From Bacteroidales bacterium (GTDB taxonomy: Bacteria; Bacteroidota; Bacteroidia; Bacteroidales; UBA932): 64,000 nt of DNA. How positions within the stretch are numbered: the first letter of the stretch is position 1; each line of letters starts with the position of its first letter. Under the pieces are notes generated by a model. The model did not search any database and had not been told where the DNA came from. It saw nothing but the letters and a program-made list of their open reading frames with translations. Both the position numbers and the translations under genes were made by a program. The stretch is taken from contig JAFTBU010000010.1 in the NCBI GenBank assembly GCA_017455065.1, forward strand, positions 31,028-95,027, in the 5' to 3' direction. Of this stretch, positions 8,576 through 31,713 are shown in pieces.

Positions 8576-11176
8576 ATGTCCGGCAAATTGTTTCTGATAG
8601 ACGGCCACGCGCTGATTTTCAAGATGTACTACGCTTTCCTGGGGCGTCCCATGGTCAATACCAAGGGCGTGGATACATCCATACTTTTCGGTTTCACCAA
8701 GTACTTGCTGGAACTCGTCCAGAGAGAAGCTCCCACGCATCTGGCAGTCTCCTTCGACCCGCCGGGAGGCACCTTCCGCAACCGCATGTATCCCGCCTAC
8801 AAGGCCAACAGGGGAGAGACCCCGCAGCTGGTGATAGACGCCCTGGAGCCTCTGACTGCCATCTGCCGGGCCATGGACATCCCGGTGCTGATGATTCCCG
8901 ACTTCGAGGCCGACGATGTGATCGGTTCCATGGCGAGGCGTGCCGCACGCGAGGGCATGGAAGTCTATATGGTCACCCCGGACAAGGATTACGGCCAGCT
9001 CGTGGAAGAGCATATCTTCCAGTACAAGCCCGGCAAGTCCGGAGCAGACAGCGAAGTGCTGGGAGTCCCGGAAGTCTGTGCCAAATGGGGCATCGACAGC
9101 CCTTCCCAGGTCATCGACATACTTGCAATCTGCGGGGACTCTTCGGACAATGTCCCCGGCGTGCAGGGAGTAGGACCCGTCGGTGCATCGAAACTCCTTC
9201 GCAAATACGGCAGCCTCGAGGCTGTCTATGCCCATCTGGATGAGCTTTCCCCGAGGCAAAAGGAAATGTTCGAAGCTGCGGCTGACCATATCGCCCTTTC
9301 CAAGCAGCTCGTCACCATCAAGACCGACATCCCCCTGGATGTCACCGCCGAAGACATGGTGACCGACATCAGCCTCACCCCGGAGCTGAAAGCCCTTTTC
9401 GACCAATACGAATTCAACTCGCTCCTGCGCCATATCCATCCCGCTTCCGGCCACGCCGCCCCTGCGGAAACTCCTGCCAGGGACCTTGCATACAGCATCG
9501 TGCCATCCTTGGGAAAGGTCGGCGCCCTGGCCTTCAACCTCGTGGACGGAACCCTGTACCTGGCCTCCGCAGACAAGGTCGCCAAAGGCAGTCCCGAGGA
9601 TTTCCGTGCCTTGCTTGAAGATGAGTCGGTGGTCAAATACGCCTTCGGCGCCAAAGCCCAGATGAATGTATTGTCCCGCTCCGGCATCAGCCTGAAAGGC
9701 AGGATCTATGATGCCGAGCTGATGCACTATATCGCCAACCCGGAGCGCAACCACAAGCTGGAGGCCCTGGTCAAATCCTACCTCGGGGTCGAATTGGAGC
9801 CGTCGGAGGCGCCTGCGCAAACGGCGTCCCTTTTCGACGACGATTCCTCTTCAGAATCCGCCGGAGGCAGGGACCTCGCCTTGGAGACAGTGGCCGTGTA
9901 CCATCTTTCGGAGCTGCTTCGCGCCGAGATGGAAAAAGGCGGCCTGGCGGAATTGTACGAAAAGATAGAAGAACCCCTGATATCCGTGCTTTCCCGGATG
10001 GAAGTCACCGGTGTCAAGGTGGACATAGCGTCCCTCAGGGATTTCGCATCTTCCCTGCGCAGCGAGATGCTGCGCCAGGAAGCACTGGTGAGGGAGATCT
10101 CCGGAGAGCCAGGGCTCAATGTCTCTTCCCCCAAGCAGCTCGGGGAGGTGCTCTTCGAGAAGATGAAACTCGATCCCAAGGCCAAGAAACCCTCCAAGGG
10201 CAGCTGGCCCACCGACGAGGCCACCCTCCAGGAACTCGCCGACCGCAGCCCCATCATCGATGCGATACTCGAGTACCGCGGCACCCGCAAGCTCCTTTCC
10301 ACCTACATAGAGCCTTTCCCTTCGTACATAAGTCCCGGGGACGGACGCGTCCATACTACTTTCAACCAGGCGCTGACCTCCACCGGAAGGCTCTCCAGCT
10401 CCAACCCCAACCTCCAGAACATCCCCATCCGCACCGAACAGGGAAGGGAGATACGCAAGGCCTTCGTCCCCGGCTCGCCCGACAGCGTGATGATGTCGGC
10501 GGACTATTCCCAGATCGAGCTCAGGGTCATGGCCCACATGTGCGGGGATGAGCATATGAAGGCCGCATTCCGCGACGGGGTGGACGTGCATGCCGCCACG
10601 GCTGCCAAGATTTTCCACGAGGACATCGCCGATGTCACCTCCAACCAGCGCAGAGTGGCCAAAACAGCCAATTTCGGCATCATGTACGGCATCTCCGCAT
10701 TCGGCCTCGCCCAGAGGCTCGGATGCCCTCGCAGCGAGGCGAAACAGATCATAGACGACTACTTCGCATCATTCCCTTCGATACGAGCCTTCATCGACTC
10801 CACCCTGGCGTCGGCCCGTGAGAACGGCTATGTCCAGACTATCTTCGGACGCCGACGGTACATACCCGACATCAACGCCCACAACGCCAACCTCAGGGCC
10901 CTGGCAGAGCGCAATGCCGTCAACGCTCCCATCCAGGGCAGCGCCGCCGACATCATCAAACTCGCCATGATCGCCGTGGACCGCAGGCTGCGCGAAGGAG
11001 GATTCTCCTCCAAAATGGTGCTCCAGATACACGACGAACTCCTGCTCGAAGTCCCTTCGGCCGAGATAGAGGCCGTGAAGGCGCTTCTGGTCGAGGAGAT
11101 GGAAGGCGTCATGAAACTTTCAGTTCCACTCACAGTAGAATGCAATTATGGCAAGACTTGGCTCGAGGCCCATTGA
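8576..11176 (+). CDS. polA: DNA polymerase I (866 aa; start MSGKLFLIDG)
   Basis: 5'-3' exonuclease motifs LIDGH, EADDVIG and GDSSDNVPGV; polymerase motifs TGRLSSSNPNLQNIP, DYSQIELR, KTANFGIMYG and LQIHDEL. Confidence 0.97.
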   Translation: MSGKLFLIDGHALIFKMYYAFLGRPMVNTKGVDTSILFGFTKYLLELVQREAPTHLAVSFDPPGGTFRNRMYPAYKANRGETPQLVIDALEPLTAICRAMDIPVLMIPDFEADDVIGSMARRAAREGMEVYMVTPDKDYGQLVEEHIFQYKPGKSGADSEVLGVPEVCAKWGIDSPSQVIDILAICGDSSDNVPGVQGVGPVGASKLLRKYGSLEAVYAHLDELSPRQKEMFEAAADHIALSKQLVTIKTDIPLDVTAEDMVTDISLTPELKALFDQYEFNSLLRHIHPASGHAAPAETPARDLAYSIVPSLGKVGALAFNLVDGTLYLASADKVAKGSPEDFRALLEDESVVKYAFGAKAQMNVLSRSGISLKGRIYDAELMHYIANPERNHKLEALVKSYLGVELEPSEAPAQTASLFDDDSSSESAGGRDLALETVAVYHLSELLRAEMEKGGLAELYEKIEEPLISVLSRMEVTGVKVDIASLRDFASSLRSEMLRQEALVREISGEPGLNVSSPKQLGEVLFEKMKLDPKAKKPSKGSWPTDEATLQELADRSPIIDAILEYRGTRKLLSTYIEPFPSYISPGDGRVHTTFNQALTSTGRLSSSNPNLQNIPIRTEQGREIRKAFVPGSPDSVMMSADYSQIELRVMAHMCGDEHMKAAFRDGVDVHAATAAKIFHEDIADVTSNQRRVAKTANFGIMYGISAFGLAQRLGCPRSEAKQIIDDYFASFPSIRAFIDSTLASARENGYVQTIFGRRRYIPDINAHNANLRALAERNAVNAPIQGSAADIIKLAMIAVDRRLREGGFSSKMVLQIHDELLLEVPSAEIEAVKALLVEEMEGVMKLSVPLTVECNYGKTWLEAH

Positions 11177-11738
11177 CGAACTCATAAGGCTCGCCATCAT
11201 AGGGGACGGCACGGCCTTCACCGAACTCTGGGACACCAACATAGACAAACTCAGGGTCTACATACGTTCCCTGATAAAGTCCTTCGACGAATACGACGTG
11301 GACGACGTCTGCTCCAACAGTTTCGAGAAGGCCTTCCGCCAGATAGGCAGCTACGACCCCGCCAAGAGCCAGTTCCCGACCTGGCTCAAGACCATCGCGC
11401 ACAACACGGCCCTGGACCTGGTGGAGCGCAAGAACCGCGAAAACAAGAAATATGTCTCCCTGGATGCCGACGCCCATCTGCAGCCGGTCATCGACACCAT
11501 AGGTGACGGGGTGGACACACCTCTGGAGTCCATCATCAAGAACGAAGACGAAGAGCAGACCCGCAAATACATCGAAGGCCTTCCCGAACTCTACCGCGAG
11601 GTGGCTTCGAAACGCCTGGTGGACGGCCTGCAGTACAAGGAAATAGCCGAGGAACTCGGGATGGAGCTCAACACCGTCCGCACCCGCATCCGCAGGGCCA
11701 AGGCTCTCATAGAAAAAATGAAGGAAGATGGAGATTGA
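11148..11738 (+). CDS. ECF-type RNA polymerase sigma-70 factor
   Basis: Region 2 (AFRQIGSYDP, FPTWLKTIAHNTALD) and region 4 (LPELYREV, YKEIAEELGMELNTVRTRIRRA). Confidence 0.92.
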   Translation: MARLGSRPIDELIRLAIIGDGTAFTELWDTNIDKLRVYIRSLIKSFDEYDVDDVCSNSFEKAFRQIGSYDPAKSQFPTWLKTIAHNTALDLVERKNRENKKYVSLDADAHLQPVIDTIGDGVDTPLESIIKNEDEEQTRKYIEGLPELYREVASKRLVDGLQYKEIAEELGMELNTVRTRIRRAKALIEKMKEDGD

Positions 11739-12342
11739 CAGGACAGCATTCGAGAGGATGTGCTCGCTGTACCGTGAGTGGAACGACAAGATAAACGTGA
11801 TCTCTCGCAAGGACATCGACAATGTCTTCGAGCACCATGTGCTCCATTCCCTCGCCATCGCGGAATACGTGGAGAGGATGGGGCTGGACCTGGGCGGCAG
11901 CGTCCTGGACGTGGGCACCGGCGGCGGTTTCCCGGGGATGCCCCTCGCCGTGACCTTCCCCGGGGTGCAGTTCACCCTCTGCGACAGCATTGGCAAGAAA
12001 ATCACCGTCGCATCGTCCGTGGCGGAGTCCCTCGGGCTGAAGAATGTCCGCTGTGTCAATGCCAGGGCGGAATCCCTGCCGGGGCAGTTCGACTGGGTGG
12101 TGTCGAGGGCGGTGGCGTCCCTGGAGGACTTCTATCCTTGGATCAAGGACAAGTACCGCTGCGGCGTGCTCTGCCTGAAAGGAGGGGATGTGGCCCAGGA
12201 AATTTCGCGGCTTCAGCGCCGTCACAAGGTGAAAGTTTCCGTTTGGAGCATAGATTCCTGGCTGAAAGACGATTATTTCAAAGAAAAATTTGTAATTCAA
12301 ATCGGAAAAAATTACCTTTGCACTCCCAAATCAGACAAATAA
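11728..12342 (+). CDS. rsmG: 16S rRNA (guanine-527-N7) methyltransferase
   Basis: INVISRKD, HVLHSL, LDVGTGGGFPG, VSRAV and LKGG motifs. Confidence 0.95.
   Translation: MEIDRTAFERMCSLYREWNDKINVISRKDIDNVFEHHVLHSLAIAEYVERMGLDLGGSVLDVGTGGGFPGMPLAVTFPGVQFTLCDSIGKKITVASSVAESLGLKNVRCVNARAESLPGQFDWVVSRAVASLEDFYPWIKDKYRCGVLCLKGGDVAQEISRLQRRHKVKVSVWSIDSWLKDDYFKEKFVIQIGKNYLCTPKSDK
12313..12320 (+). promoter_or_regulatory. -7 element TACCTTTG for rpmH, inside the 3' end of rsmG
   Basis: TAnnTTTG 35 nt before the rpmH ATG. Confidence 0.65.
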
Positions 12343-12354
12343 AAAACTAACATA

Positions 12355-12507
12355 ATGAAAAGAACATATCAACCTTCAAACCGCAAGAGAGTCAACAAGC
12401 ACGGATTCCGTGAGCGTATGAGCACTGCCAATGGCCGCAGGGTACTCTCTTCCCGCCGCCGTCATGGCCGCAAGAAGCTGACTGTCTCTTCCGAGGACAG
12501 ATTCTAA
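12355..12507 (+). CDS. rpmH: 50S ribosomal protein L34 (50 aa; below the ORF-track cutoff)
   Basis: Translation [50 protein letters not shown]. Confidence 0.98.
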
Positions 12508-12523
12508 TTCTTATAGGGAAAGT

Positions 12524-12557
12524 AAAAGAGCTGACCGCAAGGCCAGCTCTTTTTTTT
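12524..12557. terminator. Bidirectional intrinsic terminator (rpmH / pepC)
   Basis: AAAAGAGCTG-ACCGCAAGGC-CAGCTCTTTT followed by a T run. Confidence 0.88.
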
Positions 12558-13953
12558 ATTCTTCCGGAAGGAACATCGGGTCCCAGGCGGGCAGCAGCTC
12601 CGGTTTCTGCTTGAGCATGTCCTGGATGTCCTGCGGAACGAAACGCTTCTCGAGGACAAGCCGGAACATATATTCGTCGAACCACTCGTCCGTCATGATG
12701 AGGTTGCCCTTGTAACCGGACGAGGGACCCCAGCTGTTTTCGACCATCCATTTCACGGGTTTACCGTCCTTGAGATCGACAGCTATGAGGGTCATGGCAT
12801 GTGAAGAGCCGCTGGCGTGGGTCTGCACCCTCTGCTTCTTGTCCATGGACAGATCGACTCCCAGCAGGGACTCATAATCGAAATTCTTGAGGTCCATGGT
12901 GCCCTTGGTGCGGTCCAGATATTTGTTGACATCGCAGGAGAAATACATAGCGGTGCCGGCCTTGATGGAAGCTATAGCCATCTCCTTGATGCGCTCGACG
13001 GGGAGGTTGACATAGAGCCAGTTCTGTCCGTCGTAGGTGTGGCGGTCGTACTGGATCTCATAGACCTTGCCGTACTCGCGGCAGGGGTCGTTCATGACCA
13101 TGATGTAATTGTGCTCCAGGTCGGCGTCGGTGAAGGCGTCCCTGAAACTCTGCGGAGTATAGGTCTTGGTGCTCACGGCCTCTCCCTTGCTGTTGTAAAG
13201 GGTCCATTCGAACTCCTGGGGAGGCACTCCGAGGGACAATGCGAGGACGTGGTACACATCCTTGAGCATTTCGGTCTTGAGCCCCTGGAGATATTCCTGG
13301 AGTTTCTTGCCCTTCAGCCCGGCAGGGGTCTCGCGGAGCTTGAGTCCGTCCTTGCGGAGCAGGGTCTTCATCTGGGTGGCATAGGCCGAAGTGCTGTTGG
13401 CGATGAGGGTCTCGGGCATGATGTCAGCGGGGACGAGTCCGTATTTGCTGACCAGGTTGGCCACGCCCGTGAAGGTGCCGCCGTCGCTTATGGGATTGGA
13501 GAAGAGCCAGTCCACGGTGCGGTCCTCGAACGGCAGGTCCCTGGTGTCGATGACAGCCTGGAGGAAGAGGTTGGCCTTCTCGAGCTGGTCATAGAAGAAC
13601 AGGTAGTTCTGCGAGAACTGGAACTCGCCCATGTCGAATCTCTGGATGGTCTCAGCCCTGAGGACGTTCAGCCCGGTGAAGAGCCAGCAGCGGCCGGAAG
13701 ATTTCTGATCGGTGATACCCTTGGTCTTCACCCTGTATGTGAAGTGGGCGTCCGGGGCCGCAAGATTGTCCGCATTTGCGGCCAGCGCAGTGATACTGCT
13801 GACGTTCAAAGCATTGTGGATGGCCTTGTCGGCCGGATTCCCCTCGTAACCCTTGCGGATTTCGCGGAGCATTTCTTCGGTGATGGAGCCGCTGTTCTGG
13901 GCGGATGCTACCACTGCGAGCAGTGACAGTGCGATAGTAAGTAGTCTTTTCAT
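12556..13953 (-). CDS. pepC: Aminopeptidase C / bleomycin hydrolase family (C1B), secreted
   Basis: QKSSGRCWLF catalytic Cys, SHAMTL His and VENSWG Asn; N-terminal signal peptide. Confidence 0.92.
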   Translation of the reverse strand: MKRLLTIALSLLAVVASAQNSGSITEEMLREIRKGYEGNPADKAIHNALNVSSITALAANADNLAAPDAHFTYRVKTKGITDQKSSGRCWLFTGLNVLRAETIQRFDMGEFQFSQNYLFFYDQLEKANLFLQAVIDTRDLPFEDRTVDWLFSNPISDGGTFTGVANLVSKYGLVPADIMPETLIANSTSAYATQMKTLLRKDGLKLRETPAGLKGKKLQEYLQGLKTEMLKDVYHVLALSLGVPPQEFEWTLYNSKGEAVSTKTYTPQSFRDAFTDADLEHNYIMVMNDPCREYGKVYEIQYDRHTYDGQNWLYVNLPVERIKEMAIASIKAGTAMYFSCDVNKYLDRTKGTMDLKNFDYESLLGVDLSMDKKQRVQTHASGSSHAMTLIAVDLKDGKPVKWMVENSWGPSSGYKGNLIMTDEWFDEYMFRLVLEKRFVPQDIQDMLKQKPELLPAWDPMFLPEE

Positions 13954-25871: not shown

Positions 25872-25924
25872 GTCGATAAGATTTGTTCAGAATACAAATA
25901 TAATGAAAAAGCCAAAATAATCCT

Positions 25925-25932
25925 TAACTTTG
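25925..25932 (+). promoter_or_regulatory. -7 element TAACTTTG for the kinase-peptidase-RRE-ABC operon
   Basis: TAnnTTTG ending 4 nt before the GTG start. Confidence 0.55.
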
Positions 25933-25936
25933 TTAC

Positions 25937-26818
25937 GTGACAAGAGCCTTCAAAGTAGCTGACCATATTTTCCATCTGGAAGTCCCCGGAGCCGGATATG
26001 ATATCGGGCTTGAGGGGCAGTATGAGCCTTTCGAGACGGAGCCTTCTTCCGATCCCGTGTTCACTCTTGCCATCACGGACCAAGTTCCCGCGCCCACCCT
26101 CCCTCCGGTCCTGGACCAGGATATGGGAAAGGGTGAGACCCGCCTGGTGCTCTACAAGGAGCCCGACGGCTGCTGCACCGTGGACATGGCTCCCGACACC
26201 GGCATCCCCTTCACCGCCAGGCTCCGCGCCACCCCCGGTTTCCGCCAGGGCTGGCTGCAGATTTACGCAAGGGGACGCGGCTCCAGGCACTTTGCCGTGA
26301 GCAACAGCCTCATGCTCATGTACGCCTTCAGCACCGCCGCCCTCGGCACCCTCGAGATGCACGCCTCAGTCATTGCCAATGGCGGGAAGGCCTACCTTTT
26401 CCTGGCTCCGAGCGGCACCGGCAAGAGCACCCACAGCAGCCTCTGGCTGAAACATATCCCCGGCAGCGAACTGCTCAACGATGACAACCCCGTCGTCCGC
26501 GTCCTGCCCGATGGGACCGTCATGGTGTACGGCTCCCCCTGGAGCGGGAAGACCCCGTGCTACAAGGCCGCCTGCATGCCCGCCGGGGCGTTCGTGCGCA
26601 TACGCCGCAGCCCCGTCAACGGCATCACCCGGCTCGGCGTGATAGAAAGCTACGCGACCCTCACCTCTTCCACTTCCGGTCTTCGGGACGACATCCGCCA
26701 GGCCGACGGCCTGCATTCCACCCTGGAGAAAGTGATACGGGAGGTGCCCTGTTATGTACTGGACTGCCGCCCCGATGAAGAAGCTGCGAGGGTGTGCGCC
26801 GCAGAAGTGATGAAATGA
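25937..26818 (+). CDS. HPr kinase/PEPCK-like P-loop protein (type found in lasso-peptide-like clusters)
   Basis: EMHAS, FLAPSGTGKSTH Walker A, LLNDD di-Asp motif and YGSPWSGK. Confidence 0.75.
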   Translation: MTRAFKVADHIFHLEVPGAGYDIGLEGQYEPFETEPSSDPVFTLAITDQVPAPTLPPVLDQDMGKGETRLVLYKEPDGCCTVDMAPDTGIPFTARLRATPGFRQGWLQIYARGRGSRHFAVSNSLMLMYAFSTAALGTLEMHASVIANGGKAYLFLAPSGTGKSTHSSLWLKHIPGSELLNDDNPVVRVLPDGTVMVYGSPWSGKTPCYKAACMPAGAFVRIRRSPVNGITRLGVIESYATLTSSTSGLRDDIRQADGLHSTLEKVIREVPCYVLDCRPDEEAARVCAAEVMK

Positions 26819-27264
26819 CCATGGAAGTCCGCACCATCCCCAACGCCACCATACTCCGGGAAGTCTCCGACCTTCTGCTCGAGGGCCGGGAGGTCAAGAT
26901 GGGAGTCAAGGGCTCCAGCATGCTGCCCTTCATCGTAGGGGAGAGGGACAATGTGGTGCTGACCCGCCCGGAGGCGGTCTCTCCCGGAGACATAGTCCTC
27001 GCGGAAATCGCTCCGGGGCATTATGTGCTGCACCGGGTGAAGTCGGTGGAAGGGGGACAGGTCACCCTGAAGGGGGACGGCAACCTCGACGGGGAGGAGC
27101 ACTGCCTCGAGGGGGACATCCGCGGCACCGTGATACGCATAGAGACACCCCGCCGCAGCGTGGATGCCCGGACTCCCGCTTTCATGAGGCGCTCGCGCGC
27201 CTGGGCTGCCGCTCCGAGGTGTGTACGGCGGTATTCATTGGCAATAATAAGACGATTGATATGA
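26815..27264 (+). CDS. S24/S26 family peptidase without membrane anchor
   Basis: GSSMLP (Ser), GDIV, LHRV and KGDGN boxes; ATGA overlap with the upstream gene. Confidence 0.8.
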   Translation: MTMEVRTIPNATILREVSDLLLEGREVKMGVKGSSMLPFIVGERDNVVLTRPEAVSPGDIVLAEIAPGHYVLHRVKSVEGGQVTLKGDGNLDGEEHCLEGDIRGTVIRIETPRRSVDARTPAFMRRSRAWAAAPRCVRRYSLAIIRRLI

Positions 27265-27527
27265 AAATTAAAGAAGGATTCAGGCTCCGCACCATCTGCG
27301 GGGAGAACATAGTGGTGGGCGAAGGCCTGTCGCAGGTCAATTTCAACAAGATGATAGTCCTCAACGACTCCGCCGCCTTCCTCTTCGGAGAGGTGCAGGG
27401 CAGGGAATTCACAGCCGAGACCCTGGCGGAACTGCTGGAAGGCAGGTACGAAGTGGACCACGAGACCGCCCTGAGGGACTCCCGCATCATCGTGGACAAA
27501 TGGAAGGACGCCGGTATAGCCCAGTAA
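27261..27527 (+). CDS. PqqD-family / RiPP recognition element (RRE) protein, 88 aa
   Basis: Size, beta-strand N-terminus (MKIKEGFRLRTICGENIVV), LNDSAAFLF and YEVDHETALRD helices are typical of stand-alone PqqD proteins. Confidence 0.82.
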   Translation: MKIKEGFRLRTICGENIVVGEGLSQVNFNKMIVLNDSAAFLFGEVQGREFTAETLAELLEGRYEVDHETALRDSRIIVDKWKDAGIAQ

Positions 27528-27528
27528 G

Positions 27529-29169
27529 ATGAAGAATTTTTCCAGCTGTTTCAGAGGGCTTCTCGACATGATACGCCCGGTCCGGAGGAAGGTGTGGGTC
27601 ATCGTCCTCACCGGCATCGTGCTCGTGGCGGTGTCCCTGCTGTTCGTCTGGATCTCCAAACATGTCGTCGACATAGCTACATCCAAGGCTGAAGGTTCCC
27701 TGGACCGGGCCGTGATCCTCATGGCCGGGGTGATGCTGCTGCAGCTGGCCCTGCGGGTCTTTTCCAACTACTGGAAAGGCCTGGTGGAGGTGGACACCCG
27801 CAACCGCCTCACCGCCGGATATTTCGGCAAGGTGATGCGCAGCGCCTGGAACGGCCAGGACCGTTTCCACAGCGGCGACACCGTCAACCGCCTCGAGGAG
27901 GACATACGCGTGTGCGTGGATTTCATAGTCTCCAGCCTGCCGGATTTCCTGGTCACGGTGGTCCAGCTGGTGGCTGCCTCGGTGTTCCTTTTCATCCTGG
28001 CGCCTTCGCTGACCTGGGTGCTCCTCATCATCATGCCCGTCGCCGTGCTGGGAAGCCGTCTGTTCTTCAGGAAGATGCGCTCCATCACAGGAGAGATAAG
28101 GGCCCTGGACAGCCGTATCCAGGGATATATGCAGGAAAACATCCAGCACAGGATACTGGTCCGCACCCTGAAATGCACCCGCTGGGTCCTGGGACATCTT
28201 ACCGGTCTCCAGAAGGATGTGCGCGGCAAGACCGTCTCCCGCCTGAGCTACAGCGCGGTGTCCCGGGCCTTCATGGGGCTGGGTTTCGCCGCAGGCTATG
28301 CCACGGTCTTCTTCTGGAGCGTCTATGGCCTCAGGAACGGCACGGTGACCTACGGTCTGATGACAGCCTTCCTGCAGCTGGCGGGACAGGTCCAGAGGCC
28401 GGTGGCTGATATGGCCCGCCAGATCCCGGCATTCATCAGGGCGCTTTCCTCCACCGAAAGGCTGATGGAACTCTCCGAATTGCCGGAGGCAGGAAACGGG
28501 GAGGACATCCTGCTGCCCGGCGCCCCCGGCATCCTGGTGACAGGTCTGGGCTTCTCCTATCCCGATGTGCCAGAACCTGTCCTGAAAGACCTGGACTTCG
28601 ATTTCAAGCCCGGCACCATGACCGTGATCGAGGGACCTACCGGCGTGGGCAAAAGCACCCTGCTCAAACTTATGCTGTCCCTGCTGAAGCCGGTTTCCGG
28701 CAAGGTGGAACTCTACGATCCGCCGACCCCCGTCAGCGAGGAGACTCTGTGCAATTTCATGTATGTCCCCCAGGGCAACAGCCTCATGAGCGGCACCATA
28801 CGCGACAACCTCCGCCTGGCCATGCCGGACGCGGATGAGGAAAGGATGCTGGAAGTGCTGCACCTGGCAGCGGCCGATTTCGTGAAGGAACTCCCGGACG
28901 GACTGGACACGGTCTGCTCCGAAGTCGGAGGGGGATTGAGCGAGGGCCAGGCCCAGAGGATAGCCATCGCGAGGGCGCTCCTGCGTCCCGGCGGCATCCT
29001 GCTGCTGGACGAAGCCACTTCAGCCCTCGATCCCGAGACTGAGAAAGTGATGCTGGAAAGGATAAGCGGGGCGTTCCGCCGTACGAAGACCATCATCTGC
29101 ATCACCCACAGGCCTGCAGCTTCGGTCTATGCGGACTCAGTACTGACCCTTGGGCTCCCTGTCGAATAA
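27529..29169 (+). CDS. ABC exporter, fused TMD and NBD (no C39 domain)
   Basis: TM helices, GPTGVGKST, LSEGQAQR and LLLDEATSALD. Confidence 0.92.
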   Translation: MKNFSSCFRGLLDMIRPVRRKVWVIVLTGIVLVAVSLLFVWISKHVVDIATSKAEGSLDRAVILMAGVMLLQLALRVFSNYWKGLVEVDTRNRLTAGYFGKVMRSAWNGQDRFHSGDTVNRLEEDIRVCVDFIVSSLPDFLVTVVQLVAASVFLFILAPSLTWVLLIIMPVAVLGSRLFFRKMRSITGEIRALDSRIQGYMQENIQHRILVRTLKCTRWVLGHLTGLQKDVRGKTVSRLSYSAVSRAFMGLGFAAGYATVFFWSVYGLRNGTVTYGLMTAFLQLAGQVQRPVADMARQIPAFIRALSSTERLMELSELPEAGNGEDILLPGAPGILVTGLGFSYPDVPEPVLKDLDFDFKPGTMTVIEGPTGVGKSTLLKLMLSLLKPVSGKVELYDPPTPVSEETLCNFMYVPQGNSLMSGTIRDNLRLAMPDADEERMLEVLHLAAADFVKELPDGLDTVCSEVGGGLSEGQAQRIAIARALLRPGGILLLDEATSALDPETEKVMLERISGAFRRTKTIICITHRPAASVYADSVLTLGLPVE

Positions 29170-29670
29170 GCGTATCAGGAGGTTGGCGGGGAATGACTCG
29201 GCCGTTTCCTCGTACCTGTCCGCCGCCATGTCATAGACTTCGCAGGCGTTCACTATCTTTTCGTGGCAGTCCGAGAGCATGCCGTCCAGATTCTTGAACC
29301 CTTCGTTTTCCATGAGCTCTTCGCAAGAGGAAAGCTGTGAGCGGAAACTGTCGATTTCCTCATCGAGATCTTGCTGGATCTCCCTGAAAGCGTCCAGATT
29401 GTCCTGGCTGAGGTCTTCGGGGACGAAATTTGCGGCGGTTTCCCTGGCCTTCAGCAGTTTTTCGGAGGAGATGCTGTCCAGCTGGGGATAGTCCCTGACG
29501 CAGGCGATGAGGCTGGGGATCAGGTCCACCCGGCGTATGCAGTTGCTCTCCACCAGGTTCCATGCATCCAGGACATCGTCCTCGGCTTCCCTCAGATGAG
29601 CCCATGCTCCGGCGCCCCATGCCGCCAGGACACCGAGTGCCACCACCAGGATGAAAAGGATTTTCTTCAC
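29137..29670 (-). CDS. LemA family protein
   Basis: N-terminal TM, RRVDLIPSL, and YEETAESFPANLLIRLF C-terminus. Confidence 0.8.
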   Translation of the reverse strand: MKKILFILVVALGVLAAWGAGAWAHLREAEDDVLDAWNLVESNCIRRVDLIPSLIACVRDYPQLDSISSEKLLKARETAANFVPEDLSQDNLDAFREIQQDLDEEIDSFRSQLSSCEELMENEGFKNLDGMLSDCHEKIVNACEVYDMAADRYEETAESFPANLLIRLFDREPKGQY

Positions 29671-29674
29671 GGCT

Positions 29675-30685
29675 TTATTGGGCGTTGCGGACGCAGCGTA
29701 CCGGGATGGAGAAATACTCTTCGTCGGCGGTTCCTACCAGCACGTCGCCGCAGTCATGATAAATGCTCCTGTAGACTCCGGAGCCGTCTTTTTCATCTGA
29801 AGTCCAGAAGAAGGAACGGACGTTGAAATCCTTGAATTTGTGGGAAGAGCCTTCGACCACATAGCCTGTGGGGATGGCGCAGAAACTGGATTTGTCCGTG
29901 ATGTCCACATTCCTCCAATAGGTCCACATGCGCTTTCCGAGGAAAGTGGCGTTGGCCATCAGGTCTCCCGCCAAGCCCTTGAAATCCTGGAAAGGAGCTG
30001 CGTCGCTGCAGCCCAGGGCCTTGGCCAGGGAAACGAAGTCCTCCTCGCTCGGAAGCCTCCATCCGTCGGGGCAGACCACCTGTGCCTGCTTCCAGTTGTA
30101 GTATCTTCCCATGACTTTGTCGAGAGCCTTGCTGTCGGAGTAGGAATAGCCCATGGAGAAGTCCCTGACGTTCTGGCGGAACCAGTCCAGGTCTCCGATG
30201 CGGGTGTAGTAATACTCCTCCCCGTCCGCGGTGATGATGGATTTGTCAGTGGGCTTGATATTGTGGGCCTGCAGACAGCCGGTCTGGAGGTCGTTGTCGA
30301 TGATGGTGAATTCGGCGTACACCGAGCGGTCGTAGTAGCCGCTGGCGAAGGCGGTGACCACTGCAGTGTAGGAGCCGAGCTTGCTGCCCATCACCACCGT
30401 GACAGGCTCGGGGACCTTGGATTCGGTGTCGTACTTGACGGTGTCCAGCTTCTCGGTGAAAGGATCCCTGAAGATGTATCCCACTTCACCTCCGTCATTC
30501 CTGCTCATGCCCTCGAAAGTGACGACATATTTGTCGCCGGGCAGCACATAGGTCGGGATGCTGGTGGTCAGGTTGCCGGTCAGGGACAGCTTGGTGACAG
30601 TATCGTCCTCATCTTCCTTCTTGCATCCGGCCAGTACGGCGAGACCCAGCAGGAAGATCGTCAAGTATTTGAAACTATTCTTCAT
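29675..30685 (-). CDS. Lipoprotein with Fibrobacter succinogenes major paralogous (FISUMP) domain
   Basis: LAGC lipobox; IGDLDWFRQN, GRYYNW, CPDGWRLPS, FFWTS and VRCVR. Confidence 0.85.
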   Translation of the reverse strand: MKNSFKYLTIFLLGLAVLAGCKKEDEDDTVTKLSLTGNLTTSIPTYVLPGDKYVVTFEGMSRNDGGEVGYIFRDPFTEKLDTVKYDTESKVPEPVTVVMGSKLGSYTAVVTAFASGYYDRSVYAEFTIIDNDLQTGCLQAHNIKPTDKSIITADGEEYYYTRIGDLDWFRQNVRDFSMGYSYSDSKALDKVMGRYYNWKQAQVVCPDGWRLPSEEDFVSLAKALGCSDAAPFQDFKGLAGDLMANATFLGKRMWTYWRNVDITDKSSFCAIPTGYVVEGSSHKFKDFNVRSFFWTSDEKDGSGVYRSIYHDCGDVLVGTADEEYFSIPVRCVRNAQ

Positions 30686-30762: not shown

Positions 30763-31713
30763 GTGAAGATTGTACCGAGAATACTCTGCCTGGCGGTTCT
30801 GCTGCTGCTTGTGCTCTCCTGCAGCCGCGGGCGCTACGTCTCCGTGGGAGGCTATGCCCAGGGCGGGGTATATACGGTCAAATATTGCACCGCAGGTGTC
30901 TCCATGGGGCCTTCAGCCGTCAGGGACAGCATCGACGCCCTGCTCAGGGAGATCGACTTCTCCGTGTCCGGGTACAACAAGGCCTCCATCCTCTCCCGCT
31001 ACAATGCCGGGGAGACGGTGACCCCCGACCGGCACTTCGCCGCCCTGCAGTCCGTCTCCCGGGATTATCACGAGCTCACCGGAGGCGCCTTCGATGCGGC
31101 CAGCGCCCCTCTTTTCGACATATGGGGCTTCGGCTTCACCACCGACAGCCTGCCTTCCCCGGAAGCGGTAGCCGCCGCCCTGGAGGAGTGCCGCAGCGGC
31201 CGGAAACTGAATTTCAACGCCATCGCCCAGGGGTACAGCTGCGATGTCGTGGCCGGGTTCCTCCATTCGATAGGGGTGAAGGATATGTTGGTGGACATAG
31301 GCGAAATCTATTGCGAGGGCCTCAATCCCTCGGGCCGGGGCTGGTCCATAGGCATCGACGCCCCCATCGACGGCAATATGAGCCCGGGGGAGAATCTCAG
31401 CGGCATCTGGACTTCGGACGGCCGCCCCTGCGGGGTGGTGACTTCCGGCAATTACCGCAAATTCTATATAAAAGACGGCAGGAAATATTCCCACACCATC
31501 GACCCCCGCACCGGCTATCCTGTCACCCACGACCTGCTGAGCGCCACCGTCGTGGCACCGACCGCCACCGAGGCTGACGCCCTGGCCACCGCCTGCATGG
31601 TGATGGGGCCTGAAGAGGCGAAGGCTTTCATACTTGCCCGGGACGGCGTCGAGGCCTGCCTCATCTCCTCCGGCGGGGTCTGGTCTTCCCCCGGATTCAC
31701 ATTGAAGAAATAA
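30763..31713 (+). CDS. apbE: FAD:protein FMN transferase
   Basis: LSC lipobox, NFNAIAQGY, VDIGEI, TSGNYRK, IDPRTGYP and ADALATA. Confidence 0.93.
   Translation: MKIVPRILCLAVLLLLVLSCSRGRYVSVGGYAQGGVYTVKYCTAGVSMGPSAVRDSIDALLREIDFSVSGYNKASILSRYNAGETVTPDRHFAALQSVSRDYHELTGGAFDAASAPLFDIWGFGFTTDSLPSPEAVAAALEECRSGRKLNFNAIAQGYSCDVVAGFLHSIGVKDMLVDIGEIYCEGLNPSGRGWSIGIDAPIDGNMSPGENLSGIWTSDGRPCGVVTSGNYRKFYIKDGRKYSHTIDPRTGYPVTHDLLSATVVAPTATEADALATACMVMGPEEAKAFILARDGVEACLISSGGVWSSPGFTLKK

Follow-up and report, generated by a model that had tools for sequence, protein, structure and literature searches.

The 64,000-nucleotide stretch of DNA analysed here (the window: positions 31,028 to 95,027 of the forward strand of contig JAFTBU010000010.1, Bacteroidales bacterium, assembly GCA_017455065.1) carries, at 25937-29169, an operon of four genes for an HprK-like kinase, a signal-peptidase-like serine peptidase, a PqqD-type recognition element (RRE) for peptides made on the ribosome and modified after translation (RiPPs), and an ATP-binding cassette (ABC) exporter. 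With a probability of roughly three in four, this operon provides the maturation enzymes and the exporter of a linear polyphosphorylated peptide (LPP) pathway in a Bacteroidales variant, whose precursor peptides are encoded in trans and paired with lipoprotein genes. We are less confident of the exact chemistry. The initial annotation, made from the letters alone, described an orphan RiPP-like system and proposed an uncharacterised pathway, dependent on the RRE, in which a linear peptide or protein encoded elsewhere is phosphorylated, cleaved and exported. The sequence evidence supports such a pathway through the RRE, the co-occurrence of the genes, the lack of a lasso set and the precursors in trans, and the substrate does appear to be encoded elsewhere, with five candidate precursors on four other contigs. 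The system is not an orphan, however, since it has an assignable precursor family, with five copies in trans in the same genome. Nor is the pathway uncharacterised, the same enzyme set having been characterised in Paenibacillus in 2026 as LPP (PMC13381572).

The LPP pathway of Paenibacillus alginolyticus DSM5050 is encoded by lppA-K-B-S-D-N (Popov et al., Nat Commun 2026;17:6633, PMC13381572). LPP clusters comprise the precursor LppA, the HprK-like LppK, the discrete RRE LppB, the archaeal-signal-peptidase-like LppS, the MsbA-like LppD and the NTP transferase LppN, and are without a cyclase. Their leaders follow the consensus YxxPxVLxHQxIxFETxxS, in which Tyr is residue −16, and discrete lasso and LPP RREs bind the leader motif [Y/W]xxPx[L/V/I/F/A]. 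LppK adds several phosphates to core Ser3 of LppA, and unphosphorylated precursor is poorly cleaved. LppS (S29/H68/D93) cuts the leader after T-1 only with LppB presenting the substrate, a presentation that works via contacts with the N-terminal α1 helix of LppS. Deletion of lppN caused no change in detected products. The peptides, whose role is unknown, were called ‘restricted to the Bacillota’, and the text of that study makes no mention of Bacteroid*, Prevotella or lipoproteins (all PMC13381572). In the literature we found nothing specific on PqqD with S24 and HPr kinase in Bacteroidetes, or on antiSMASH ‘RRE-containing’ regions. The enzyme set is already known, while the occurrence in Bacteroidales and the scattered, lipoprotein-paired precursors are new.

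The window genes match LppK, LppS, LppB and LppD one for one. The kinase gene (25937-26818, 293 aa, GTG start), the peptidase gene (26815-27264, 149 aa), the PqqD gene (27261-27527, 88 aa) and the ABC exporter gene (27529-29169, 546 aa) all lie on the plus strand, as read from the open reading frame (ORF) listing and directly from the sequence. Their tight coupling is as first described: the kinase and peptidase genes and the peptidase and PqqD genes share ATGA start/stop overlaps (26815-26818 and 27261-27264), and a single base (27528) separates the PqqD stop from the ABC start. The G+C content of the operon, 0.60-0.64, is slightly above that of its flanks, 0.51-0.59.

Profile matches make the 88-aa protein an RRE of the PqqD type, with lasso B1 proteins as its nearest relatives. 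It matches PF05402 with E 3e-11 and 43.8 bits against a gathering cut-off of 23.4. The sole meaningful solved relatives of the family, from its profile against the PDB, are the lasso B1 proteins TfuB1 (6jx3_B, 8.5e-8), PbaB1 (9x90_B, 0.0035) and TbiB1 (0.0047), together with the LPP RRE LppB (9x8z_B, 0.024). The PqqD fold, on which the first proposal had been made to depend, is therefore borne out. The genome has one PqqD copy, that of the operon, and therefore only one RRE able to read YxxP leaders.

The kinase is predicted, largely from its structural model, to be an HprK/PEPCK-fold P-loop kinase resembling LppK. The AlphaFold2 (AF2) model, built on 19 homologues, has a pLDDT of 91 and a pTM of 0.89, and its Foldseek matches are ATP-dependent phosphoenolpyruvate carboxykinase (PEPCK) and HPr kinase/phosphorylase (HprK/P), with E 3e-6 to 1e-5. 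The Walker A motif SGTGKST (residues 159-165, nt 26411-26431) is invariant across the 19 homologues, as are NDDNP and PWSGKTPCY. Residues ~1-110 form a beta-rich N-domain peculiar to the family, and the kinase domain follows. Sequence matches are weaker: NCBIfam gave weak hits to HprK_rel_A (HprK-related kinase A) and ScmC, and the local Pfam scan gave no match, with Hpr_kinase_C (PF07475) also not above its cut-off. The relation to Hpr_kinase_C is thus one of fold for the window protein, with weak matches in relatives. Homologues number more than 7900 in a collection of 5.8 billion proteins, nearly all of them unnamed, and relatives at E≤1e-3 fall into 6867 cluster representatives. The family carries the precomputed Pfam label PF27840.

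The peptidase is best described as a soluble, signal-peptidase-like (clan SF) serine peptidase, LppS-like, with an activity predicted from model and conservation. Its AF2 model (pLDDT 94.6) shows a clan-SF beta core with an N-terminal helix (residues 10-22) and two C-terminal helices as additions, and Foldseek matched it to lambda cI, LexA, UmuD', SpsB and SipA. Invariant in 25 homologues are G33, S35, M36, P38, H73, R74, G87 and D88, of which S35 (nt 26917-26919), H73 (27031-27033) and D88 (27076-27078) are the predicted catalytic residues. We take the motifs GxSMxP...HR...GD to be those of endoplasmic reticulum (ER)/archaeal-type signal peptidases, with a Ser/His(/Asp) set, rather than of the LexA Ser/Lys pair. 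The family profile gave weak matches to LexA and to SEC11A/C, the latter in agreement with this assignment. The model has no hydrophobic membrane anchor, the N-terminal helix being amphipathic, and the enzyme is therefore expected to be cytoplasmic. A serine peptidase of the S24/S26 kind had been proposed to stand in the place of the lasso leader peptidase B2, and the clan-SF fold, the invariant Ser/His/Asp and a genome devoid of B2 all agree with this. As in LPP clusters, the signal-peptidase-I-like Ser/His/Asp leader peptidase is encoded with a discrete RRE, its gene overlapping the PqqD gene. By description, the triad and the N-terminal helix recall LppS.

Class assignment of the peptidase needs care. 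The match to Peptidase_S24 (Pfam) has E 9e-5, just under the cut-off, and the NCBIfam matches, lexA and archaeal-type signal peptidase I, are both ~2e-4; the latter model (TIGR02228) gave 2.6e-4 and 20.9 bits against a cut-off of 51.85. The peptidase is S26B-like in predicted action and lies outside the TIGR02228 equivalog, as it falls below the cut-off and lacks the N-terminal anchor. It shares GxSMxP...HR...GD(G/N)N and the Ser/His(/Asp) set with the ER/archaeal-type signal peptidases (SipW, Sec11; MEROPS S26B), but is soluble, has extra terminal helices and scores far under the family cut-off. Whereas those enzymes cut signal peptides, the window enzyme is predicted to act on RRE-bound leaders.

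The ABC protein is a half-size type-IV exporter, composed of a transmembrane domain and a nucleotide-binding domain, and is MsbA/ABCB-like and LppD-like. Its Pfam matches are ABC_membrane (E 5e-25) and ABC_tran (E 9e-24). In NCBIfam it matches CydD and MsbA at ~1e-59 to 1e-64, all under their cut-offs, and its PDB matches are ABCB1 and BmrA. A predicted MsbA-like exporter is thus present, as in LPP clusters. Pfam and NCBIfam scans found no C39 peptidase domain in it.

Searches of the assembly to which the window belongs (2.1 Mb, 64 contigs, 96.7% complete) separate the operon from lasso biosynthesis. The absence of cyclase, B2 and precursor from the window, noted at the outset, was confirmed, and for cyclase and B2 it extends to the genome. 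The ORF listing and the sequence contain no precursor within the window, including the 65-bp gap upstream of the kinase gene, and Transglut_core3 (B2) is absent from the whole genome. Genome-wide Asn_synthase matches are of the weak PP-loop type, the best with 23.6 bits over 121 of 354 positions. NTP_transf_5 (PF14907), the nucleotidyltransferase (NTase) family, has no match in the whole genome. In B. thetaiotaomicron both PqqD and NTP_transf_5 gave matches. No lasso system elsewhere in the genome, such as might have undercut the original proposal, accounts for the operon. Like an LPP cluster, the operon and its genome are without macrolactam cyclase or B2, both of which belong to paeninodin-type clusters. 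Paeninodin/pseudomycoidin lasso clusters (A, C, B1, B2, kinase, NTase, ABC) resemble the operon in the B1-type RRE, the HprK-like kinase, the ABC exporter, an optional NTP_transf_5 and a [Y/W]xxP leader. They differ in having a cyclase and a transglutaminase-like B2, whereas the peptidase here is of another fold and catalytic type and the product is expected to be linear. A canonical cluster of the lasso type does occur in the same phylum (L112:6557-11299, genome G332), with GT2, a distant HprK-like kinase, Transglut_core3 (B2), PqqD and Asn synthase; no precursor was found in it.

Precursor candidates emerged from small-ORF clustering around 80+ related loci, followed by a regular expression and then hidden Markov models (HMMs). 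Clustering gave one non-trivial family, 42-50-aa ORFs directly 3' of the NTase gene in five loci (L054, L069, L070, L076, L084), with the pattern MKKMNK-x-YEAPKAEVIE[LM]... and then a variable Gly/acidic tail. The family as extended is 40-55 aa long and has a YxxPxhxhhxh leader (h, hydrophobic), followed by a conserved hh[C/M]xS block and then by an acidic tail that varies. Besides the founding loci, the peptide gene follows the NTase gene in L065, L067 and L102-L104, lies between the PqqD and kinase genes in L107, stands 130 nt upstream of PqqD in L108 and comes just after the ABC gene in L046. Altogether, at least 12 genomes have it within the operon or immediately next to it, in several arrangements, and further members occur in the 8-kb flanks of L036, L059, L072, L074, L078, L080 and L082. 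The initial annotation had proposed looking around homologues for co-occurring small ORFs or nucleotidyltransferases; these YxxP ORFs are what such a survey yields, together with an NTase at 15 of 80 loci.

In an alignment of 22 peptides the spacing is fixed: Tyr at 0, Pro at +3, hydrophobic residues at +5, +7, +8, +10, +15 and +16, C/M at +17 and usually Ser at +19 (Y+19/+20), with no conservation beyond. The genome of the window has at least five such genes, of 46-53 aa, none in the window and all on four other contigs, found by the family search. They encode MNMKQNQFYESPEIRIVEIAVDGIVCQSGGTEKFTTGSNSYGEDDFE (C15:16259-16402, plus strand), MESTSKLHYEAPETLGLELTHSSVICTSGGTERFTTGNSYNEDDFE (C15:5868-6008, minus), MKEKDMYVSPNCETLELCTQGVIAQSPGDFANPAFFMPFDPEEEELEW (C43:90985-91131, minus), MPMKEKHYSAPDMDTVTLMQSAALMENLSGLPFGVWNYGNEDPENQYYYYDED (C17:37238-37399, plus) and ...MKTSRLPYENPDLRSFEFRYQGALCQSMRMMKFGPEDTPGNIDDEDIVDGGSF (C27:58791-58973, plus). 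Fitted to these five copies after the fact, a motif had 5 matches in the genome and 0 in its reversed sequence or in five triplet-shuffled versions of it, a count that for this reason shows specificity alone. Between the two C15 paralogues the leaders differ and the tails are almost the same, and the tail is therefore suggested as the functional product. Each of the five genes lies directly upstream of a same-strand lipoprotein gene; across the family, ~18 of 24 members, these five among them, stand 0-70 nt upstream of, or overlap the start of, such a gene. A public protein collection already includes at least 230 family members as called genes; those of them with a name are ‘hypothetical protein’, with the single exception of an evident mislabel as ‘signal recognition particle GTPase’. 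No public member carries a Pfam domain or a name that tells of function. NCBIfam gave no match for the peptides, nor did Pfam for the two from the window's genome that were scanned against it. A candidate substrate family is thus now assigned to Bacteroidales PqqD operons formerly without a visible precursor, the precursors being tiny unnamed genes.

Peptide and kinase occur together across the order. Among 301 of its genomes, with the kinase taken at E≤1e-20 and the peptide HMM at E≤0.01, 18 were kinase-positive, 17 peptide-positive and 11 both, where ~1 would be expected (Fisher p = 9e-12). Five of the six peptide-positive genomes outside the overlap carry a divergent homologue of the kinase or a kinase/S24/PqqD set: G231, G631 and G435 have weaker kinase matches, and G498 and G450 have divergent kinase/peptidase/PqqD clusters (L119, L118, L123), one of which contains a peptide. 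In the sixth, G597 (86% complete), only PqqD genes were seen.

Taken together with the Paenibacillus work, these patterns suggest the following course of events. The PqqD protein would bind the Y-x-x-P-x-h-x-h-h-x-h leader of the precursor peptides, and the HprK-like kinase would phosphorylate the core, the likeliest site being the conserved Ser 19-20 residues after Tyr. The Ser35/His73/Asp88 enzyme, with its substrate presented by the RRE, would take off the leader, most probably by a cut just behind the pair of hydrophobic residues and ahead of the [C/M]-x-S block; Ser would then be residue 3 of the core, as it is in LppA. We also considered [C/M]-x-S as a −3/−1 signal-peptidase site with cleavage after Ser; by analogy this was dropped for the LppA-like cut two residues before Ser. 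The ABC half-transporter would then move a linear acidic phosphopeptide across the inner membrane. Substrates would be supplied in trans, by at least five precursor genes on C15 (two), C17, C27 and C43. In this model, phosphorylation, cleavage site, export and biological role are proposed by analogy, from what was found in Paenibacillus and from patterns in the sequences.

The assignment of these peptides to the operon has an alternative, in which the operon acts on another substrate (a protein, the lipoproteins or an unrecognised peptide) and the YxxP micro-ORFs are unrelated upstream ORFs (uORFs) or regulatory leader peptides. That the peptide genes of this genome never adjoin the operon fits this alternative, as does the position of ~18 of 24 members directly 5' of a lipoprotein gene, like that of a regulatory uORF. 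Larger substrates are also conceivable, LPP precursors reaching up to 200 aa (PMC13381572). We nevertheless judge it unlikely, given the presence of the family inside or beside the operon in the other genomes, the order-wide co-occurrence with the kinase (p ~1e-11) and leaders bearing [Y/W]xxPx[L/V/I/F/A], the motif bound by discrete lasso and LPP RREs. The C15 paralogues, which keep near-identical tails behind different leaders, likewise argue against a merely regulatory role.

A second alternative keeps the machinery and the peptides and changes the chemistry: the kinase-fold protein would transfer another group, or serve as a phosphorylase or an ATP-driven scaffold, and no phosphopeptide would be made. 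The sequence link to characterised HprK-like kinases is weak, the N-domain of ~110 residues is specific to the family and has no known relative, and the conserved Ser is missing in about one third of the peptides. Against these points, the protein shares its Walker A motif and its fold with HprK/PEPCK, and a distant homologue of the kinase sits in the canonical lasso cluster of the same phylum. Both LppK and the kinases of paeninodin-type clusters phosphorylate Ser (PMC13381572). A departure from phosphorylation is on this evidence improbable.

Reading the operon as a Bacteroidales LPP system draws on several features common to both. The HprK-like kinase is represented in the cluster by the PEPCK/HprK fold (Foldseek) and the invariant Walker A motif, its activity being predicted, and there is no cyclase. 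NTP_transf_5 occurs in a minority of loci. The putative Bacteroidales precursors resemble those of LPP clusters in part: they have a YxxP leader, a conserved Ser (in hh[C/M]xS) just after the predicted cut and a hypervariable C-terminus, and they are encoded in cis in L107, L108, L046 and L054-L084 but only in trans in the window's genome. The differences lie in genetic layout and in detail. Bacillota precursors are within the cluster, inside capsule loci, whereas here they are multi-copy, in trans and paired with lipoproteins. LPP leaders have HQxIxFET after YxxP, which the Bacteroidales leaders do not share, and the Bacteroidales cores are short (~19-30 aa) and acidic. LPP clusters have LppN, whereas the window genome is without an NTase. 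Some Bacteroidales variants have kinase::peptidase or peptidase::ABC fusions, or a radical SAM gene.

Several observations weigh against the assignment to LPP or weaken its support. LppN, an LPP core gene, is absent from the genome and from most related loci. The leader differs in detail from the LPP consensus, and residues −3 to −1 are not F-E-T; the cleavage site is therefore only inferred. No more than ~2/3 of the 22 aligned peptides have the conserved Ser, and the peptidase falls under the curated cut-offs of Pfam S24 and NCBIfam archaeal signal peptidase I. As the seeds of the peptide HMM came from kinase-positive genomes, relatedness inflates the co-occurrence statistic, and 7 kinase-positive genomes were without a peptide at E≤0.01. 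Finally, the PqqD profile is nearer to the actinobacterial TfuB1 (8.5e-8) than to LppB (0.024). From this ranking the system may be an independent offshoot of lasso machinery, and the Bacteroidales system may have arisen by independent recruitment from it rather than as an LPP orthologue.

The gene set is conserved well beyond the window. Relatives of the kinase-peptidase-PqqD operon were found in at least 594 species-representative genome records (Bacteroidales), and among 80 records listed almost all are uncultured rumen or gut Bacteroidales, including Prevotella, Bacteroidaceae, Rikenellaceae, Muribaculaceae, Cryptobacteroides and Limimorpha. In 80 fetched related loci, the kinase gene is adjoined by S24 in 76, PqqD in 75, ABC in 60 and NTP_transf_5 in 15. 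As the set is adjacent in most of these loci while the flanks vary, the linkage is far beyond chance; the FtsK-DUF4290 flank of the window is retained in the nearest relatives alone. The co-occurrence in other genomes, a further point by which the first proposal could have fallen, is thus well documented. Spread within the order is patchy, the kinase being present in 18 of 301 evenly sampled genomes and in 13 of 208 genera, and kinase, peptidase and PqqD are also found together in other classes of the phylum. The LPP-type pathway, recorded here mostly in rumen and gut metagenome-assembled genomes, would thereby extend to a Gram-negative, gut-dominating phylum, the Bacteroidota.

Natural gene fusions also tie the parts of the operon together. 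Kinase::peptidase fusions are found in P0124, P0219, P0246 and L068. In L108 (G231:C1, same order), where the gene order is precursor, PqqD, kinase, the last gene (10360-12633) encodes a 757-aa fusion of an N-terminal S24/S26-like peptidase with the ABC exporter. With its serine peptidase, this fusion is the counterpart of the ABC transporters of double-glycine bacteriocins that contain a C39 peptidase (PCATs). PCATs likewise couple leader removal to ABC export, and L108 fuses its peptidase N-terminally, but PCATs use a C39 cysteine peptidase and a GG leader, whereas the enzyme here is a Ser/His clan-SF peptidase, RRE-dependent and in the window a separate protein. That the operon is a decaying, functionless remnant of a paeninodin-type lasso cluster, having lost cyclase, B2 and precursor, would explain a gene set equal to a lasso cluster minus C and B2 with no adjacent precursor, yet is highly improbable in view of four intact ORFs, catalytic residues invariant across the families, an arrangement kept in at least 594 species genomes with differing flanks, an S26-like peptidase that is a gain and not a loss, and the existence of fusion proteins.

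Variant clusters combine the same genes with others. Three loci of another class (L102:7356-13474, L103, L104) have GltX followed by PqqD, radical SAM (350 aa), kinase, S24 peptidase, ABC (613 aa) and NTase. Their YxxP-leader ORF after the NTase gene has a Cys-containing, Pro/Gly/Arg-rich basic core (..LLGCGKDGSMCSG..). Four loci of Bacteroidaceae (L050:9744-12053, also L039, L061 and L073) have, after PqqD and in place of the ABC exporter, a 766-aa polytopic membrane protein. Its N-terminus (GVSNDAVNF...) presumably resembles that of a PiT/PHO4 phosphate transporter.

The lipoproteins encoded next to the peptides bear on their possible function. Many of them have a common N-terminal domain of ~300 aa, which is present in three of the five partners in the window's genome and in a further paralogue without a peptide. 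A third pilin-like paralogue (C15:13836-16235, plus strand) is ~61% identical to the product of the C15:16412 gene and has no YxxP micro-ORF in front; the pairing of peptide and lipoprotein is therefore not obligatory. Neither Pfam nor NCBIfam gave a significant match for the partner lipoproteins. The profile of the ~300-aa domain gave one match in the PDB, with E 4.6e-5, to 4k4k_A, which was deposited under the label ‘putative cell adhesion protein’; we take this label to be used for Bacteroides type-V-pilin-like structures. Match and label together suggest a candidate likeness of the partner lipoproteins to type-V pilins.

It is a tentative thought, held with low confidence, that the putative phosphopeptides are dedicated partners of type-V-pilin-like surface lipoproteins and not free bacteriocins or signals. 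If so, a central set of kinase, peptidase, RRE and exporter would mature all precursors and send them to the periplasm, where each acidic phosphopeptide would be bound by or attached to its cognate adhesin-like lipoprotein, or would control that protein's assembly or surface display. The RiPP pathway would then be a cell-surface maturation system with a hub-and-spoke genetic layout. The Bacillota work on LPPs could only guess at a link to capsule or biofilm (PMC13381572), and the pairing of precursor and lipoprotein provides a testable lead to the function of LPP-type peptides.

Other genes near these lipoproteins were also noted. Those 3' of the lipoprotein gene in loci of the L069 type (FadL-like, TPR, LptC, CNNM) were considered as pathway members and set aside, as they look like unrelated housekeeping genes. 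Directly 3' of the pilin-like lipoprotein paired with the C17 peptide lies a gene (C17:38602-40413, equal to L116:5602-7413) for a Peptidase_C10 (streptopain-like) protein with a Spi/I69 inhibitor prodomain and a Rib domain, which could be a processing protease for the adjoining lipoprotein. Beside the pilin-like lipoprotein of the second C15 locus (C15b), a gene on the minus strand (L114:1697-3373) encodes a 558-aa protein with a lipoprotein-like signal, a C-terminal AraC-type helix-turn-helix and a faint sub-threshold Kelch-type match, an architecture odd for a regulator. A 534-aa protein beside the first C15 locus, C15a (C15:18795-20399, minus strand), has an N-terminal region similar to it by eye.

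The flanks of the operon in the window are as first reported, a gap of 65 bp upstream (here 25872-25936) and an overlap downstream, which measures 33 nt. Upstream, the gap is followed by a divergent DUF4290 gene, preceded by FtsK; downstream, a convergent LemA gene (29137-29670, minus strand) overlaps the 3' end of the ABC gene. The −7 element that had been attributed to the operon was also found: a candidate, TAACTTTG (25925-25932, plus strand), read from the sequence, fits the Bacteroidetes TAnnTTTG consensus. It is the sole such element and sits 4 nt 5' of the kinase GTG, a conserved start that is supported because homologues begin at the same residue. This short distance implies an mRNA that is leaderless or nearly so; from the sequence, the operon mRNA may be leaderless, or the promoter may lie inside the 5' region of the DUF4290 gene. 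Two genes from the operon, at 29675-30685 on the minus strand, the window encodes a lipoprotein with a Fib_succ_major (FISUMP) domain, and the 77-bp gap upstream of its gene leaves no room for a peptide ORF. A homologue of this lipoprotein is encoded in L016 and L020 on the same strand as the ABC gene and ~40-80 nt 3' of it.

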